This document shows, piece by piece, positions 37,271 through 63,305 of a DNA stretch of 64,000 bases; the first letter of the stretch is position 1, and each line of letters opens with the position of its first letter. The DNA is from a virus: IMG/VR virus record IMGVR_UViG_3300019889_000008, positions 1 to 64,000 of that record; one strand, given 5' to 3'. Under the pieces are notes generated by a model. It had not been told where the DNA came from. It did not search any database and saw only the letters and a list, made by a program, of their open reading frames with translations. A program made the position numbers and the translations under genes.

Positions 37271-37910
37271 CCCGACGAAGTTGACGGAATGGCCATGGCG
37301 ACCCGCCGGACGGGTGGATCAAGCACTTCAACACGAGCCGGTGCCGCCCGGATGGCGACCCAGCAAAGGAATCAATCGGATGGCCGGAGCCGGCTTCAAC
37401 ATCTCGCAGATAGACCCGGAGGATGCTCGCATTATCCGCGAGGCCGCCGCGGACTCAGTCGTCCCCTGTGGCTCGTGCAACGCTTGCTGCCATAGCCCGG
37501 TCGGTGTGCAGCCCCAGTTCGGCGACGACCCATCGCTCTACGAACTGGCGATCAACGTCGACACGTCGGCGCCGAACGGGCACACGATGGTCACGCTCAA
37601 CCGCAAGCCGGATGGCTCCTGCTACGCCCTGAAGAACGGGCGGTGCTCGATTTGGGAGAAGCGGCCCCAGGTCTGCCGGGCGTTCGACTGCCGGAAGATC
37701 TTCGCCATGCACACCAAGGAGGAGCGCCGGGCCCTCGTCGATCTGAAGTATTTCAAGCAGGCCATCTTCGACGCCGGGCGCAAGCGGTTGTCCACCCTGG
37801 CCAACGCCGAGGCCCTGCGGGACGCCTGCAAGCGGATCGGCTATGGCCGGATGGCCCTCGACTACATGGAGCGCCGCCGCGGCGTGGTGCCGAAGGGGCC
37901 GCGGTCATGA
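37263..37910 (+). CDS. YkgJ-family CxxCxxCC (Fe-S/Zn) protein
   Basis: CGSCNACC..C..L..GRCSIWEKRPQVCRAFDC. Confidence 0.85.
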   Translation: MLDPTKLTEWPWRPAGRVDQALQHEPVPPGWRPSKGINRMAGAGFNISQIDPEDARIIREAAADSVVPCGSCNACCHSPVGVQPQFGDDPSLYELAINVDTSAPNGHTMVTLNRKPDGSCYALKNGRCSIWEKRPQVCRAFDCRKIFAMHTKEERRALVDLKYFKQAIFDAGRKRLSTLANAEALRDACKRIGYGRMALDYMERRRGVVPKGPRS

Positions 37911-38221
37911 GCCGGCCCATCCCACCAGAGGATCTGCGTGACCTCTTCATGCGCGTGCTCGCCGGCTATGCCCACTTTTGGGCGACGCTGCCGGACAAGA
38001 CCCCGCTCGAACGATGCAACGGCCTCGCCTTCTCGTTCCTGGTGATGCTCGACGGGGGCAACATGAGCCTCCCTGTCTTCGATTTGGTCGCTCGTCCGCA
38101 TCCGGACGACAAGGCGTTCCATCAAGGGCGTGGCACAGATTGGGTCGAGGATGGCACGGTCATCAGCGACATCGGCCTTCATGAACTCTGGCATCGATAC
38201 GAGAAGGGCCCCCAGCCATGA
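37907..38221 (+). CDS. conserved phage hypothetical protein
   Basis: ERCNGLAFSFLVMLDG..PHPDDK..LHE. Confidence 0.65.
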   Translation: MSRPIPPEDLRDLFMRVLAGYAHFWATLPDKTPLERCNGLAFSFLVMLDGGNMSLPVFDLVARPHPDDKAFHQGRGTDWVEDGTVISDIGLHELWHRYEKGPQP

Positions 38222-58221: not shown

Positions 58222-59043
58222 ATGGTCGAGAACTGGCTCCGCTGGCACGTCGGGACCGGAACCGATCCGAAATGGAAGGTGGTCGCCCGCCGTTGCCGCC
58301 AGCCGGTCCATGCGGTCCTCGCGGTGTGGGCGCTGATGCTGGAGTGCGCATCGCAGGCTGCCGACCGGGGCACCCTGGAGGGGTGGGACGACGAGGATGC
58401 CGGCGCAGCGCTGGACCTGACCGTCGAGGATGTGGCCGCGATCCGTGAGGCCATGCAGGGCAAGGTGCTCGACGGTGGTCGTCTTGAAGCCTGGAGCCGG
58501 CGGCAACCGAAACGCGAAGACAATTCGGCAGATCGTGTCCGTGCGTTCCGCCAGCGAAAGCGAGCGTCACCGATCGTTACGGATGGCGATGTAACACAGG
58601 GTAACGCTTCGGAAACGCAAAGAAACGCTAGAGGAGAGGAGAGGAGAGTAGAGGAGAAGAGAGAAGAACAAGATCCGGTTTTTTCGCTTCGCTCAAAAAC
58701 CGACGCTCCTCGCGTTTCGGCTGAAGCCGAGCCCGCGGTCGCGTCGCCGATCGAACCGAAGGCCCCGGAAACACCGCAGCAGGCCCCGTCCAGGCCCATC
58801 GGCGACGTGCTGTGGGCGGAGGGGCTGGCGTACCTCAAACGGGCTGGTGTGCCGGAAAAGCAAGCCCGGTCGCTGCTGGGTCGCTGGCGCCGCGACTTCG
58901 GCGACGGCGAGGCCCTGGCCGCCATTGCCGAAGCCGACAAGGCCGCTGCCACGCAGCCGGTCGAATTCGTCACCGCCATCCTCCAGCGCCGCCGGCAGAC
59001 CAGAAGCCGCGATGCGCCGTCGTCCACCCGGTACGCGATCTAG
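58222..59043 (+). CDS. phage replication initiator protein
   Basis: WLRWHVGT.TDPKW, W.RRQPKRED.SA.R..AFRQRK, VT..NA..TQ..EERR linker, ARSLLGRWRRD. Confidence 0.8.
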   Translation: MVENWLRWHVGTGTDPKWKVVARRCRQPVHAVLAVWALMLECASQAADRGTLEGWDDEDAGAALDLTVEDVAAIREAMQGKVLDGGRLEAWSRRQPKREDNSADRVRAFRQRKRASPIVTDGDVTQGNASETQRNARGEERRVEEKREEQDPVFSLRSKTDAPRVSAEAEPAVASPIEPKAPETPQQAPSRPIGDVLWAEGLAYLKRAGVPEKQARSLLGRWRRDFGDGEALAAIAEADKAAATQPVEFVTAILQRRRQTRSRDAPSSTRYAI

Positions 59044-59050
59044 GCCGGCC

Positions 59051-59365
59051 ATGCGGGTCGAGGTCACCAGCGTCCGCCAGGGGCTCGAAGCCCAAGGCTT
59101 CCGGCTCCGCTCCTACAACCCCGGCGAGCACCACTCCGTCTGCCCACGGTGCAGCCCCCAGAGGACGAAGAAAAATGCCCGATGCGTTTCCGTCCGGATC
59201 GAGCCCGATGGGGCCGCATGGCAATGCCACCACTGCGGATGGCGAGACGGCTTCCGGCTACACGGCGATCAGCCGGGCCGCCGAGAAGTGGTTCCACAAG
59301 CGGGGCATCCATCACGGCGCCCTTCGGGTTGGCGGCGTGTATTCGGAGGTTCGGGGCGGCTCTGA
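59051..59365 (+). CDS. primase zinc-binding domain (separate frame)
   Basis: CPRCS..R.KK..C.SV..WQCHHCGW. Confidence 0.75.
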   Translation: MRVEVTSVRQGLEAQGFRLRSYNPGEHHSVCPRCSPQRTKKNARCVSVRIEPDGAAWQCHHCGWRDGFRLHGDQPGRREVVPQAGHPSRRPSGWRRVFGGSGRL

Positions 59366-61727
59366 GGCGATCGTCTTCCCCTACCGGCGTCGCGGCACGA
59401 TCGTGAACCGGAAATATCGAGCCGAGGGCAAGCGGCTCTGGATGGATACCGGCGGCGAGTTGATCCTGTGGAACCTGGACTGCCTGCTGTCGAACCCGGA
59501 TCACGTCTACATCGTCGAGGGCGAGCCGGACGCCCTGGCCTTCATGGAGGCCGGGATCTGGAACGTGGTCTCGGTCCCGAACGGCGCGGCTCCGCCGGTT
59601 GAAGATGGCGACCGGGGGGTGCCCGAGCCCGACCGGGACGATGCCTTCCGCTACCTGTGGAACTGCCGGGACGAGTTGGCCGGCAAGCGCTTCGTCCTGG
59701 CCGGCGACACGGATGCGCCTGGCGTGCATCTCCGCCATTCGCTCGTGGCCCGGCTCGGCCGCGCCAACTGCGACGTCGTCGATTGGCCCGAGGGGGTCAA
59801 GGACGGCAATGACTACCTGATCGAGGTCGGGCCCGAAGCCTTCGCCGAGTACGTGCGGGCCAGCCGCAAGCCGTATCCCATCCGGGGCCTGTGGGCATGG
59901 AACGAGGTCCAGCCGACCCCGCCGATGGAGACCCTCGACATCGGCATCCCGCTGCTGCGCCAGCACGTCCGGCTGGCCCGCGGAACCGTCTCGGTCGTCA
60001 CCGGCATCCCGAACCACGGGAAGGCATTGGACATCGACACGCCGATCCCGACGCCATCGGGCTGGACCACCATGGGCGCGTTGCAACCCGGCGATCAGGT
60101 GTTCGACGAGAAGGGGAAGCCGTGCCGGGTCGTCGCCGCAACGCCGGTCATGCACGACCGACCGTGCCACCGGATGCGGTTCTCGGGCGGCGCCGAGATC
60201 GTGGCCGATGCCGCTCACGAATGGGCGACCGTATCTGAGGCGGCTCGGCGCCGCGCCAGGACCACCAGCACCAATGCTCGGCTGTCGATCTCCACGACCG
60301 CGGAGATCGCGGCGTCGCTGAAATCGCAAGGCAAGAACAACCACCAGATCCCGCTCTGCCGGCCGCTGGAACTCCCGGAGGCGGCGTTGCCGATCGAGCC
60401 CTATGTCCTCGGCGTCTGGCTCGGCAATGGCACCACCGCATCGTCCGGCCTCACGCAGTTCGACCTAGCCGTGATCACGGGCATCCGCGAGGCCGGCTAC
60501 GGCGTGAACGAGCGAGCCCGCGCCGGGAGCTTCTGGATCGTCGGCCTCAACCCGCTGCTGCGTGCCCTGGGCCTGCTCGGCGACAAGCACATCCCGGCGA
60601 TCTATCTCCGGGCCTCGGCTCCGCAGCGGCTGGCTCTGCTGCAAGGTCTGATGGACACGGACGGTTACTGCCATCCGGAGAACGGATGCGAGTTCACGTC
60701 CGTCAAGCGCGCGCTCGCCGAGGGCGCCTATGAACTGGCACTGTCGCTCGGTATCCGGGCTCGCTGGAGCGAGGGCAGAGCAACGATCGACGGCCGGGAT
60801 TGCGGCCCGAAATATCGGGTGCTGTTCTCAACCGACGTCCCGGTGTTCCGCCTGGAGCGGAAACTCGCACGCCAGAAGATCGGTCGGCACACGAAGGTCG
60901 GCGCCTGGACGGTCACCGCCTGCGACCCCGTCGACAGCGTGCCGGTGCGATGCATCCAGGTTGACTCGCCGTCCAGCCTGTTCCTCGCCGGGCGGCAGAT
61001 GATCCCGACGCACAACTCCGCCCTGTGGAAGCAGATCGCCTGCCAGATGATCAAACTCCACGGCTGGAACGTCACCGCCGCCAGTTTCGAGGACCGGGTC
61101 TACGCGAACCTCATGCCCGAGCTGCTCCGGATCATGAGCGGCCTCGGGCCCTCCCTGGAGCCCTGGGTCGTGGCGGCGCGGGCCGAGGCGGCCCTGGTGC
61201 TGGCCAAGCACATGTCCTTCATCGCCGACGAGGGCTATGTCGACGAGCCCATGACCCTGAAGTGGCTGGTCGACATCGCACGGGATGCGAAGATCCGGTA
61301 CGGCACCGCCTTCTTGATCTTCGACCCGTGGAACGAGATCGAGCACCTGTGGGGTCGCGATCAGAACGAGACGCAGTACATCGGCGAGGCGCTCCGGGAT
61401 CTGAGGCGGCTCGCCGTCGAACTGGACATGCACATCATGATCGTCGCGCACCCGACCAAGGTGCTCGATGGTCAGGCGCCAGGGCTCTACCACATTTCCG
61501 GATCGGCCCATTGGGCAAACAAGGTCGACATCGGCCTTGTCGTGCATCAGCCGCACTTCGCCCAAGGCCCAGGCGGCCCGACCGAGATCTACGTCCGCAA
61601 GATCAAGCGCGCCGAACTCGGTCAGCGCGGGATCGTGACCGTCCAGTTCAACCCGGCCACCGCCTCGTTCGAGGCCCCAGCCGGCCGCCCCTTTGATGAT
61701 CCCGACGTGGAAAGGACCGCAGCATGA
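59175..61727 (+). CDS. TOPRIM primase-SF4 helicase (T7 gp4/Twinkle-like) with intein; start uncertain
   Basis: WF..RGI, IVEGEPDAL, SVPNGA, D.D.PG, KDGND; TGIPNHGK/S, DPWNE, VAHPTK, ISGSAHW.NK.D. Confidence 0.9.
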   Translation: MPDAFPSGSSPMGPHGNATTADGETASGYTAISRAAEKWFHKRGIHHGALRVGGVYSEVRGGSEAIVFPYRRRGTIVNRKYRAEGKRLWMDTGGELILWNLDCLLSNPDHVYIVEGEPDALAFMEAGIWNVVSVPNGAAPPVEDGDRGVPEPDRDDAFRYLWNCRDELAGKRFVLAGDTDAPGVHLRHSLVARLGRANCDVVDWPEGVKDGNDYLIEVGPEAFAEYVRASRKPYPIRGLWAWNEVQPTPPMETLDIGIPLLRQHVRLARGTVSVVTGIPNHGKALDIDTPIPTPSGWTTMGALQPGDQVFDEKGKPCRVVAATPVMHDRPCHRMRFSGGAEIVADAAHEWATVSEAARRRARTTSTNARLSISTTAEIAASLKSQGKNNHQIPLCRPLELPEAALPIEPYVLGVWLGNGTTASSGLTQFDLAVITGIREAGYGVNERARAGSFWIVGLNPLLRALGLLGDKHIPAIYLRASAPQRLALLQGLMDTDGYCHPENGCEFTSVKRALAEGAYELALSLGIRARWSEGRATIDGRDCGPKYRVLFSTDVPVFRLERKLARQKIGRHTKVGAWTVTACDPVDSVPVRCIQVDSPSSLFLAGRQMIPTHNSALWKQIACQMIKLHGWNVTAASFEDRVYANLMPELLRIMSGLGPSLEPWVVAARAEAALVLAKHMSFIADEGYVDEPMTLKWLVDIARDAKIRYGTAFLIFDPWNEIEHLWGRDQNETQYIGEALRDLRRLAVELDMHIMIVAHPTKVLDGQAPGLYHISGSAHWANKVDIGLVVHQPHFAQGPGGPTEIYVRKIKRAELGQRGIVTVQFNPATASFEAPAGRPFDDPDVERTAA
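60024..61016 (+). mobile_element. class 3 (Ala1, WCT) intein with LAGLIDADG domain in helicase P-loop
   Basis: GK|ALDIDTPIPTPSGW..HEW..VRCIQV..PTHN|S; LGVWLGNG and LQGLMDTDG. Confidence 0.93.
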
Positions 61728-62014
61728 GCGATGCAATGAACGAGGGCCTGCCCGTGGCCGGCTACCGGCCGCAGACCGACGAGGCCGTCGCTCTCGTCAA
61801 CGAGAACAAGGAACTGGAGGAGCGCGTCCTTCGCCAGATGGATGCGATCCGCGCGCTCGTCAACGAGGGCGAGCCGGACCTGATCGACTTGCGGTGGTTC
61901 GCCATCGCCAGGACGCAGATCGAGCAGGGCTTCATGGCGCTCAACCGGTCGATCTTCAAACCCGGCCGGGTCCGCCTAGCCGACGACGATGCGCCGCCGA
62001 AGGCAGGGCCGTGA
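61724..62014 (+). CDS. Acb2-like cyclic-oligonucleotide sponge (anti-CBASS candidate)
   Basis: GYR..T.E...VN..K..EE ... RW.AIA.TQI.QGFMA..R.I..P matches my recollection of the Acb2 family pattern. Confidence 0.8.
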   Translation: MSDAMNEGLPVAGYRPQTDEAVALVNENKELEERVLRQMDAIRALVNEGEPDLIDLRWFAIARTQIEQGFMALNRSIFKPGRVRLADDDAPPKAGP

Positions 62015-62214
62015 TGGGATGGTTCCTCAATTGGTTTTGGGGGCCTGAGCCCGAGTTCAAGCCGGGCGAGGCCCTGCCGTTCCTCCGCTGGCGCGGCGAC
62101 CGTCTCGTCCGGCCGCGGGTCCCGCCGCCGATCCAGTACATCATCCAGGGCCCCCGGCTCCCGTGGGTCAACGAGCACAAAATGCCGGGCCGCCGTCCGG
62201 AGGATCTCCGCTGA
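62014..62214 (+). CDS. hypothetical protein
   Basis: Coupled ORF. Confidence 0.45.
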   Translation: MGWFLNWFWGPEPEFKPGEALPFLRWRGDRLVRPRVPPPIQYIIQGPRLPWVNEHKMPGRRPEDLR

Positions 62215-63305
62215 TGCTCCGCCTGCTCGATCTCTTCGCCGGCATCGGCGGCATGAGCCTGGGCCTCCAGCGATCGGGCCATTTCCGCCCGGTGGCGTTC
62301 TGCGAGATCGATCCGTTCTGCCAGCACGTCCTCCGCAAGCATTGGCCCGAGGTTCCGATCTATGGCGACGTCCGAACCCTCAACCGAGCCCGCCTCGCCG
62401 CCGATGGAATTGCCGTTGACGCCATCTGCGGCGGCTTCCCCTGCCAGGACATCTCGGCCGCGGGGCGAGGCGCGGGGCTTCATGGCTCCCGTTCCGTTCT
62501 CTGGCGTGAGTTCGCTCGACTGCTTGGCGATCTACGACCCCGATACGCGATCGTGGAAAACGTCGATGCTCTCGCTTTTCGGGGTCTCGGAATCGTTCTT
62601 GGAGACTTGGCCGCGCTCGGGTTCGATGCGGTCTGGCATTGCATACCGGCTGCCGCCGTTGGTGCCCGACACCTGCGCGAGCGGGTCTGGATTGTGGCCT
62701 ACACCGATCGCTCGGGATTGGAAGAGCAGTTCTACCGCCACGCGCCAGAACTCGCGGCCGCTGTCGGAACACATACCTGGGGCTCTGAACCCCCTGTGGG
62801 TCGAATGGCTTATGGGATTTCCCCTTTACTGGTCGGAGGTGGCGTAGATGAAGCGGCCGTGGCGCATCCGGAAGGCGGCGCAGCGCGCCGTCTCGCTGGC
62901 CGGAAAGCAATGCAGCGAGTGCAACGGGACGCACCGGCTCCAGAGACATCATCCGGATTATTCGAAGCCGAGCGAGATCGTCATCCTCTGCCAGCGGTGC
63001 CACGTCGCGGCCGACATAGCAGCAGGCTTCCGGAAGGTGAAGCAGCCGAAGCTCTGCAAGGTGTGCGGAACCGAGTTCCTGCCGAACCACAGCCGGAAGC
63101 ACAGCACGTGCAGCCGGGAGTGCCTCTCGGAGATCGGCCGCCAGAATTCGTTGAAGCGGTGGCGCCGGGTGGCCGAAAACCAAAGGCCCGCAAGCGCAAG
63201 CTGATGAAGAACCGCGTCAACCGCGTTCGCGCGCTCGGCAATTCCGCGGTCCCACAAATCCCGGAAATCATTGGCCGTCTGATCGGCAACCTGGAGGCAG
63301 CGTGA
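62214..63305 (+). CDS. C5 cytosine DNA methyltransferase (alpha chain; motifs I-VIII and X)
   Basis: DLFAGIGG, GGFPCQD, ENV, RERVW, ALGNSAVP. Confidence 0.93.
   Translation: MLRLLDLFAGIGGMSLGLQRSGHFRPVAFCEIDPFCQHVLRKHWPEVPIYGDVRTLNRARLAADGIAVDAICGGFPCQDISAAGRGAGLHGSRSVLWREFARLLGDLRPRYAIVENVDALAFRGLGIVLGDLAALGFDAVWHCIPAAAVGARHLRERVWIVAYTDRSGLEEQFYRHAPELAAAVGTHTWGSEPPVGRMAYGISPLLVGGGVDEAAVAHPEGGAARRLAGRKAMQRVQRDAPAPETSSGLFEAERDRHPLPAVPRRGRHSSRLPEGEAAEALQGVRNRVPAEPQPEAQHVQPGVPLGDRPPEFVEAVAPGGRKPKARKRKLMKNRVNRVRALGNSAVPQIPEIIGRLIGNLEAA
62362..62847 (+). CDS. overprinted methyltransferase beta chain carrying motif IX
   Basis: SWKTS, WPRSG.MRSG, WPTP.ARDWK, LNPLWVEWLMGFP in alternative frame. Confidence 0.75.
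   Translation: MATSEPSTEPASPPMELPLTPSAAASPARTSRPRGEARGFMAPVPFSGVSSLDCLAIYDPDTRSWKTSMLSLFGVSESFLETWPRSGSMRSGIAYRLPPLVPDTCASGSGLWPTPIARDWKSSSTATRQNSRPLSEHIPGALNPLWVEWLMGFPLYWSEVA
62848..63204 (+). CDS. nested HNH-like/zinc-finger protein
   Basis: GGAGG RBS; CSEC..HHPDYSKP..LCQRCH; CKVCG..CSREC. Confidence 0.72.
   Translation: MKRPWRIRKAAQRAVSLAGKQCSECNGTHRLQRHHPDYSKPSEIVILCQRCHVAADIAAGFRKVKQPKLCKVCGTEFLPNHSRKHSTCSRECLSEIGRQNSLKRWRRVAENQRPASAS

Follow-up and report, generated by a model that had tools for sequence, protein, structure and literature searches.

A Putative Hidden HNH Endonuclease Gene in a Phage C5 Methyltransferase Encoded in Two Overlapping Reading Frames

Introduction

How can a phage gene that is already read in two frames take up a further gene and still specify its own proteins? 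This question is raised by a locus in a stretch of viral DNA of 64,000 nucleotides (nt), positions 1 to 64,000 of IMG/VR record IMGVR_UViG_3300019889_000008, which we refer to as the window. Here, the gene for the alpha chain of a C5 cytosine methyltransferase encloses an open reading frame (ORF) for a second methyltransferase chain, beta, and directly behind it an ORF for a predicted HNH endonuclease, both of which are read in frame +1. The virus record originates from a soil metagenome, comprises 73.8 kb and was judged complete; the GC content of the window is 66 %.

A two-chain organization of this kind is described for M.EcoHK31I (E. coli HK31, YGGCCR), a heterodimeric C5 methyltransferase whose beta chain has its coding sequence wholly inside the alpha gene, in a different reading frame (PMC2836561). 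A preliminary description of the window, made from its sequence alone, had likened the locus to this enzyme and had proposed that a putative homing nuclease gene was inserted at the one place that the dual-frame layout tolerates. Following up this proposal by computational analysis, we consider it probable that the locus represents a two-chain, overlapped phage C5 methyltransferase of the M.EcoHK31I type that has been invaded by a hidden, out-of-frame HNH gene of the homing type.

Methyltransferase Motifs in Two Reading Frames

The catalytic part of the enzyme was readily recognized in the alpha chain. Its residues 3–168 match the Pfam family DNA_methylase (PF00145, profile positions 2–166 of 324, E value 1e-34), and M.HhaI aligns to residues 2–169 (8e-16). 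Motifs I–VIII, including DLFAGIGG, GGFPCQD, ENV and RHLRERVW, are located within residues 1–170, and motif X (RALGNSAVPQ) is found at the C-terminus, the last 30 residues being RALGNSAVPQIPEIIGRL. Motif IX is absent from the alpha frame and present in frame +1 only, meaning that motifs IX and X are not united in one chain with motifs I–VIII, as X belongs to alpha and IX to frame +1. Pfam profile, M.HhaI alignment and sequence thereby agree with the preliminary description, which had assigned all of these motifs except IX to the main frame. Between the catalytic domain and motif X, alpha gave no match to any family. In its AlphaFold2 (AF2) model, the predicted local distance difference test (pLDDT) values reach 75–98 for residues 1–180 and 68–92 for the last 20 residues, and stay below 50 for residues 185–276 and 287–341; the region of about residues 185–341 is predicted to be a disordered, low-confidence linker that leads to an ordered motif X.

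The missing motif is supplied by beta, which carries WPRSG, GLWPTP and the motif IX-like sequence LNPLWVEWLMGFP and reads ETWPRSGSMRSGIAYRLPPL ... GLWPTPIARDWK ... LNPLWVEWLMGFPLYWSEVA in frame +1. An association region (ETWPRSGSMRSG) forms its N-terminal portion; a short part for target recognition (GLWPTPIARDWK) precedes motif IX (LNPLWVEWLMGFP) and the TAG stop codon. In tblastn searches, both alpha and beta match Mycobacterium phages (Nitzel, among others) and Synechococcus phage Ssp-JY42, each time at shared positions and in frames that differ, with E values for beta of 8e-18 for the Synechococcus and 3e-15 for the Mycobacterium phages. In both cases, the gene annotated as methyltransferase harbours a long ORF in frame +1, which ends in NP.WVEWL(M/Q)G.P..W. 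Beta furthermore matches phrog_1008 ('DNA methyltransferase') at 6e-19. The alternative frame with its motif IX-like sequence, which had been noticed in the window beforehand, is thus confirmed by the motif itself, by relatives in two phage groups and by phrog_1008.

To what extent the second frame is conserved became apparent from about 160 related loci, which were retrieved from metagenomes and IMG/VR with alpha-type queries. In 94 of these loci, the region from motif IV to motif IX is open in both frames. Across motifs IV–VIII, the mean pairwise identity amounts to 68 % in the alpha frame versus 46 % in the beta frame, whereas at motif IX the beta frame, with 78 %, exceeds the alpha frame with 64 %. 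The start codon of beta is kept across the relatives as M-[TK]-x-S-E-x-S, and RVWIVAY of alpha and GLWPTP of beta, both of which are conserved, are encoded by the same bases. Judging from sequence conservation, the M.EcoHK31I-like alpha/beta layout is real and widely conserved, and its assignment to the window holds with both frames open in 94 loci and a conserved ATG of beta.

Some variation of this layout was observed among the related loci. The target-recognition region of beta contains one to several WPTP units, the linker ranging from 27 to 162 codons. Repeated 'DVADA' or 'LADA' sequences in annotated alpha proteins (for example L087, 2900–3200) are the frame 0 shadow of (M/L)WPTP repeats in beta. 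In gp69 of Mycobacterium phage Starcevich (L166, 2501–3604), a single-chain C5 enzyme, target-recognition domain (TRD), motif IX and motif X lie in frame, and frame +1 keeps an open, beta-like N-terminal reading (YDPDTRSWK...ETWPKTG...LPTP).

When alpha and beta were modelled as a complex, the score reached 0.89 (0.89–0.90 in three runs), whereas the highest-scoring of three controls gave 0.01; among solved complexes, 58 of 80 attain the mark of 0.89, as do two of 110 mismatched pairs. The runs share at least 59 % of their contacts, and the pLDDT of the partner is at least 63. In the model, residues 83–92 of beta are placed on residues 138–155 of alpha, while motif IX of beta (138–153) is placed on motif X of alpha (330–348). 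The score may partly stem from the likeness of the pair to solved single-chain C5 methyltransferases, and the model supports binding of alpha and beta without demonstrating it. We infer that beta is translated from frame +1 within the alpha gene, and that it would contribute the WPTP target-recognition part together with motif IX and would complete the enzyme by binding to alpha.

Insertion of the HNH Cassette

Homologues that lack the insertion, to which the preliminary description had looked for a comparison, were indeed found. The closest protein relative of alpha (P0005) comprises 235 amino acids (aa) and is 87 % identical. Its DNA (L005) and a second locus (L006) contain both methyltransferase frames and no HNH gene, and their DNA flanking the gene is about 93 % identical to the window. 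The gene has a length of 1092 nt in the window versus 705 nt in L005 and L006, a difference of exactly 387 nt; as this is a multiple of three, both frames stay in register. Compared with L006, 533 of 574 nt are identical upstream of the insert (93 %) and 83 of 86 nt downstream (97 %), and identity drops to 62 % in the 45 nt directly to the left of the insert (Table 1). This diverged left flank resembles the family consensus and not L006, and may represent a co-conversion tract that was brought in with the cassette.

The cassette comprises the last four codons and the stop codon of beta, the HNH gene and five codons of alpha. It is located between the end of the conserved part of beta (GFP..W) and the start of motif X of alpha (RV.R..ALGN). 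On the 3' side of the insert, the old tail of beta (TAFARSAIPRS...) is still readable in frame +1, and from RVRALGN on the C-terminus of alpha is identical to that of the insert-free L006. A search of the locus with Rfam (E value up to 1) revealed no intron or ribozyme, the only hit being a chance match to a small nucleolar RNA, and a Pfam scan of the alpha frame revealed no intein or Hint family. With the insert in register and neither an intron nor an intein domain detected by these searches, the earlier suggestion that neither is needed is supported. Contigs from the source soil sample bear the insert and are identical to the window, and other soil runs yielded only short pieces of related methyltransferases; among the sequencing runs, no RNA run was listed as containing the locus.

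Taken together with the two-frame coding described above, a simple course of events can be proposed. The 387 nt cassette with its HNH gene would have entered between the functional part of beta and motif X of alpha, thereby supplying a new stop codon for beta, right behind which the start of the HNH gene sits with its own GGAGG. The HNH protein would probably be translated from this GGAGG site or by coupling to beta. Alpha would be read through the cassette, since the latter is a multiple of three and contains no stop codon in the alpha frame, and would thereby gain roughly 129 residues as an additional, disordered loop ahead of motif X. The HNH protein itself would most likely be of the homing type, cutting insert-free alleles at the highly conserved, doubly coded junction, whereupon the cassette would be copied in by repair.

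Duplications around the HNH gene were observed in many insert-bearing alleles (L085, 3590–3706; L063, 3043–3177; P0006–P0012), in which about 12–25 junction codons are found on both sides of the HNH gene. The upstream copy retains motif IX of beta, and the downstream copy retains W..EPD.PRVA.GV..RVDRL of alpha. In the window this junction repeat is limited to 'NRV NRV', compared with about 12 codons in L085 and L063.

The coordinates of all features of the locus are given in Table 1. The start codon of alpha is overlapped by the TGA of an upstream ORF.

Table 1. Features of the methyltransferase locus, in positions of the window.
Feature	Position	Strand	Remarks
Alpha chain, C5 cytosine methyltransferase	62214..63305	+	363 aa; frame 0, ATG 62214 to TGA 63305
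Beta chain	62362..62847	+	161 aa; frame +1, wholly within alpha; ATG 62362 to TAG
HNH and zinc-ribbon endonuclease gene, predicted	62848..63204	+	118 aa; frame +1 as beta; nested in alpha
Inserted cassette	62833..63219	+	387 nt = 129 codons; from alignment with L005 and L006 (1092 minus 705 nt); edges accurate to a few bases
Shine-Dalgarno-like GGAGG	62835..62839	+	8 nt 5' of the HNH ATG; formed by the S-E-V codons of beta
Left insert flank, divergent relative to the nearest alleles	62788..62832	+	28 of 45 nt identical to L006
C-terminal segment of alpha with motif X (NRVRALGNSAVPQIPEIIGRLIGNLEAA)	63204..63305	+	in-frame ATG overlaps the HNH stop (TGATG)
GGAGG	62198..62202	+	11 nt 5' of the alpha ATG

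The Nested HNH Gene

The TAG of beta abuts the ATG of the HNH ORF without any gap, and together with the GGAGG in front of it this confirms the earlier view of an ORF for an HNH/zinc-finger protein that is led by a ribosome-binding site and directly follows beta. The picture of three overprinted proteins, which had been drawn at the same time, applies in part: the alpha gene shares bases first with beta and further on with the HNH gene, each of which is read in frame +1, and no base serves three frames.

Ten positions of the HNH protein (C22, C25, H34, H35, C48, C51, H52, C70, C73 and C92) were found to be invariant in 17 homologues. The nested ORF contains the CxxC ... HH ... CxxCH zinc-stabilized core of HNH enzymes as well as a second CxxC...C ribbon. 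It matches phrog_2340 ('endonuclease') at 2e-9, and its zinc ribbon matches NinG/HNH families weakly. In a tblastn search of GenBank phages, the sole match covered 46 residues (7–52), which resemble ORFs of Staphylococcus phage K-like phages, several of them annotated as endonuclease, while a profile search of genome contigs with a narrower HNH alignment found no relative. The AF2 model of the protein has a pLDDT of 86.8. Upon structural comparison of residues 1–63 with VIA-align, HNH nucleases fill most of the top places, with 4h9d (Z 5.0, root-mean-square deviation 3.0, 60 aligned residues) followed by T5 SciA (4.4), GVE2 (4.3) and McrA (4.2), and residues 66–114 structurally match a YacG-like ribbon. 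As few as 15 called proteins of this HNH family are present among 5.8 billion protein clusters, which is expected of a gene that is skipped by gene callers.

Recurrence and the Open Alpha Frame

Counting the window, nine of about 165 related loci possess an HNH gene from one of two families. The HNH family of the window occupies the corresponding junction in a further five loci (L085, L087, L167, L168 and L170), and an unrelated, larger HNH gene is located at nearly the same site in L063/L064, L127 and L152. In all five unfused loci among the six with the former family, a stop codon, either TAG or TAA, abuts the ATG of the HNH gene. The junction follows the pattern W[T/S]E..stop-ATG, the T/S-E codons providing GGAG in five of the six loci and L170 having GGAT. 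In L087 (3180–3618), GAT replaces the stop codon, and beta and HNH form one ORF (WTEVD-MPKK...). A free-standing relative of the HNH protein was found in L171.

Alpha is free of stop codons across the HNH gene in each of the nine loci that combine this layout with an HNH gene, whereas the third frame contains one to six stops. Synonymous resampling of the HNH gene, carried out for six of the nine loci, gave probabilities for an open alpha frame of 0.117 for the window and of 0.002, 0.004, 0.005, 0.001 and 0.012 for the others. Inside the insert, identity is 47–67 % in the HNH frame versus 22–48 % in the alpha frame; the HNH frame being better conserved, it is the selected reading there, and alpha need only stay open. 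That the main frame stays open through the HNH gene to motif X, as first seen in the window, thus extends to the other HNH-bearing loci, and the occurrence of two HNH families at a junction where alpha is open throughout supports the idea that the dual-frame layout tolerates an insertion at this site.

A different arrangement was encountered in L172 (about 800–2700), a phage of lower GC content, in which motifs I–VIII end at a stop codon in one frame, and TRD, motif IX, an HNH shadow and motif X continue in another. This looks like an M.AquI-like split with an HNH gene hidden between motifs IX and X. The second HNH family, as found in L063, also matches inside an annotated 'DNA-cytosine methyltransferase' of Staphylococcus phage CUB-EPI_14 (H103, 37788–38147, E value 9e-11), which may be a hidden HNH gene in a cultured isolate.

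Assessment of the Proposed Invasion and of Alternatives

Several observations weigh against an invasion by a functional homing-type nuclease gene. In the window itself, neither the beta frame (P = 0.19 by synonymous resampling) nor the alpha frame across the HNH gene (P = 0.12) is open to a significant degree, and at 66 % GC both could be open by chance; the support derives from homology together with the conservation observed across further loci. As the loci were found via alpha homologues, the set may be biased towards open alpha frames; tblastn would also recover interrupted ones. In the Pfam search, the nested ORF matched no HNH family, Foldseek returned no match to its model in the PDB at E ≤ 0.001, and the Z values obtained with VIA-align are modest. 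Within the H-N-H triad, the window reads CHVAAD, in which Asp56 replaces the last metal-binding His, as it does in close relatives, several other relatives having His, and at the position of the central Asn the residue varies between E, D, Q and N. Such variants of the triad occur among HNH enzymes, and activity is thus possible, although with the last His being Asp and the central Asn unconserved the protein could be inactive or could nick only. Moreover, the insert-free joint (62832/63220) was not seen in the contigs of the source sample, which show no sign of ongoing mobility.

Part of these points would be accommodated if the insert were a decaying relic with an inactive HNH protein, an alpha chain perhaps disabled by 129 residues and frames that are open by chance in GC-rich DNA. 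Such a relic would fit the open alpha frame of the window, which is not significant, the Asp in place of the last His and the lack of polymorphism at the locus in the source sample. We nevertheless regard it as quite unlikely, given an intact HNH ORF in which all invariant Cys and His residues are kept and which yields a confident model, an alpha frame that is open in all nine HNH-bearing loci with chance probabilities of 0.001–0.012 in the others tested, and a motif X that is identical to that of L006. An HNH protein that is a working partner of the enzyme, coupled or fused to beta as a nuclease arm, for example as a restriction-like or methylation-guarded cutter, appears improbable, if a little less so than a relic. 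The gene does always lie in the beta frame directly behind the beta stop, the sense codon in L087 creates a single beta–HNH ORF, and M.EcoHK31I belongs to a restriction-modification system (PMC2836561). The nearest alleles, however, as well as most of the about 160 related loci, do without an HNH gene, the site is occupied by two unrelated HNH families, and a free-standing relative exists in L171, all of which are marks of a mobile and dispensable element.

We judge one ordinary single-chain methyltransferase, whose frame changes would be due to errors in sequencing, to programmed frameshifting or to an intron that is spliced out, to be highly improbable. Relatives that unite TRD, IX and X within one frame of a single chain do occur, as exemplified by Starcevich gp69, but the two-frame layout recurs in 94 independent loci, the contig from the source sample is identical to the window, and Rfam detects no intron. 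Frameshifts and sequencing errors were rejected, since RVWIVAY and GLWPTP are encoded by the same bases, so that a single chain switching between frames could not contain both motifs. A broader idea, which we hold to be doubtful, is that the junction between motif IX of beta and motif X of alpha is hyper-conserved by the two-frame constraint and acts as a general landing site for unrelated nucleases, and that the HNH protein is perhaps not purely a parasite but rides on the alpha/beta complex, whose recognition or methylation would guide or guard the cut. The HNH protein could do so because it would be expressed by coupling to beta and is fused to it in L087.

Comparison with Known Systems

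The invasion of a two-chain methyltransferase by a hidden HNH gene, which we favour, combines two phenomena that have each been published, namely a two-frame methyltransferase and a hidden HNH gene, and the locus is the union of both. Compared by described layout, it resembles M.EcoHK31I in that beta lies wholly inside alpha, is read in another frame and carries motif IX. In M.EcoHK31I, the N-terminal part of beta is needed for association, and the TRD was assigned to alpha (PMC2836561). The former finds its counterpart in the contact predicted for residues 83–92 of beta with residues 138–155 of alpha, whereas the WPTP target-recognition part of the window enzyme is located in beta and not in alpha. 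Unlike M.EcoHK31I, the window enzyme is furthermore an orphan with no restriction gene seen beside it, and it contains the nested HNH gene.

Free-standing homing endonucleases can enter phage genes without an intron, as exemplified by mobE in nrdA of Aeromonas phage Aeh1. This case is like the window in that a nuclease gene sits in a conserved gene, neither an intron nor an intein is involved and host function would be retained, but in Aeh1 the host gene yields two separate polypeptides, while in the window the frame stays open and would be read through.

An HNH gene that is hidden out of frame within a stop-free insertion of a methylase has a precedent, as it was described for the ShiLan domain of a mycobacteriophage methylase (Arsenault, Gosselin and Gogarten 2025, PMC11855218; also PMC9957025). 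The ShiLan insertion is distributed patchily and shows no signals for splicing, a loop is predicted for its product in the host frame, and the mode of translation of the HNH gene was posed as a question (PMC11855218). This HNH protein comprises 195 aa, has a GTG start codon and is read in the third frame without a detectable ribosome-binding site; an 11-residue repeat was also described (PMC11855218), which the junction duplications of the insert-bearing alleles resemble. As in ShiLan, the HNH gene of the window lies in an alternative frame of a phage methylase, and its insert is placed between host codons and adds no stop to the host frame. Both lack intron and intein features, are patchy among close relatives, are predicted to add a loop to the host-frame product, which is disordered in the window, and bear a short copy of downstream host sequence at the edge of the insert ('NRV NRV' in the window). 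In contrast to ShiLan, the HNH protein of the window measures 118 aa, is read in frame +1 from an ATG that is preceded by GGAGG, and its start codon follows without a gap on the stop of another overlapped gene, beta.

That the host methylase of ShiLan belongs to the same family as the window enzyme was considered and rejected, as the ShiLan-type gene of phage Starcevich is gp66, which has the amino-methyltransferase motif DPFAGSGTT, while gp69 is a single-chain C5 enzyme. The words 'cytosine' and 'subunit' are not mentioned in the ShiLan paper (PMC11855218), and a full-text literature search found no paper that describes a two-frame methyltransferase in combination with a hidden HNH gene.

To this background, the present locus adds that the HNH start abuts the stop of beta in five of six loci, the two being fused in L087, which suggests how a hidden HNH gene is translated and thereby addresses the question raised by the ShiLan paper. 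Of the three genes at the locus, two escape standard annotation, and odd 'linker' or 'insert' sequences in database methyltransferases are shadows of other genes. With insert-free and insert-bearing alleles at hand, the locus offers a simple system for studying homing as well as the tolerance of a methyltransferase towards an unstructured insertion.

Neighbouring Genes

Just upstream of the locus, a 96 aa ORF (61724–62014, + strand) contains the Acb2/Tad1 hairpin domain (Pfam PF24729, E value 4.8e-18), making it a candidate nucleotide sponge against the cyclic oligonucleotide-based antiphage signalling system (anti-CBASS) or against Thoeris (anti-Thoeris). The long ORF at 58812–61727 (+ strand) shows a weak, below-threshold Toprim match and helicase-like sequence, and it is interrupted by a segment that contains LAGLIDADG (PF14528, residues 605–655). 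This segment probably represents an intein, in which case another mobile nuclease would lie 500 bp away from the HNH gene.

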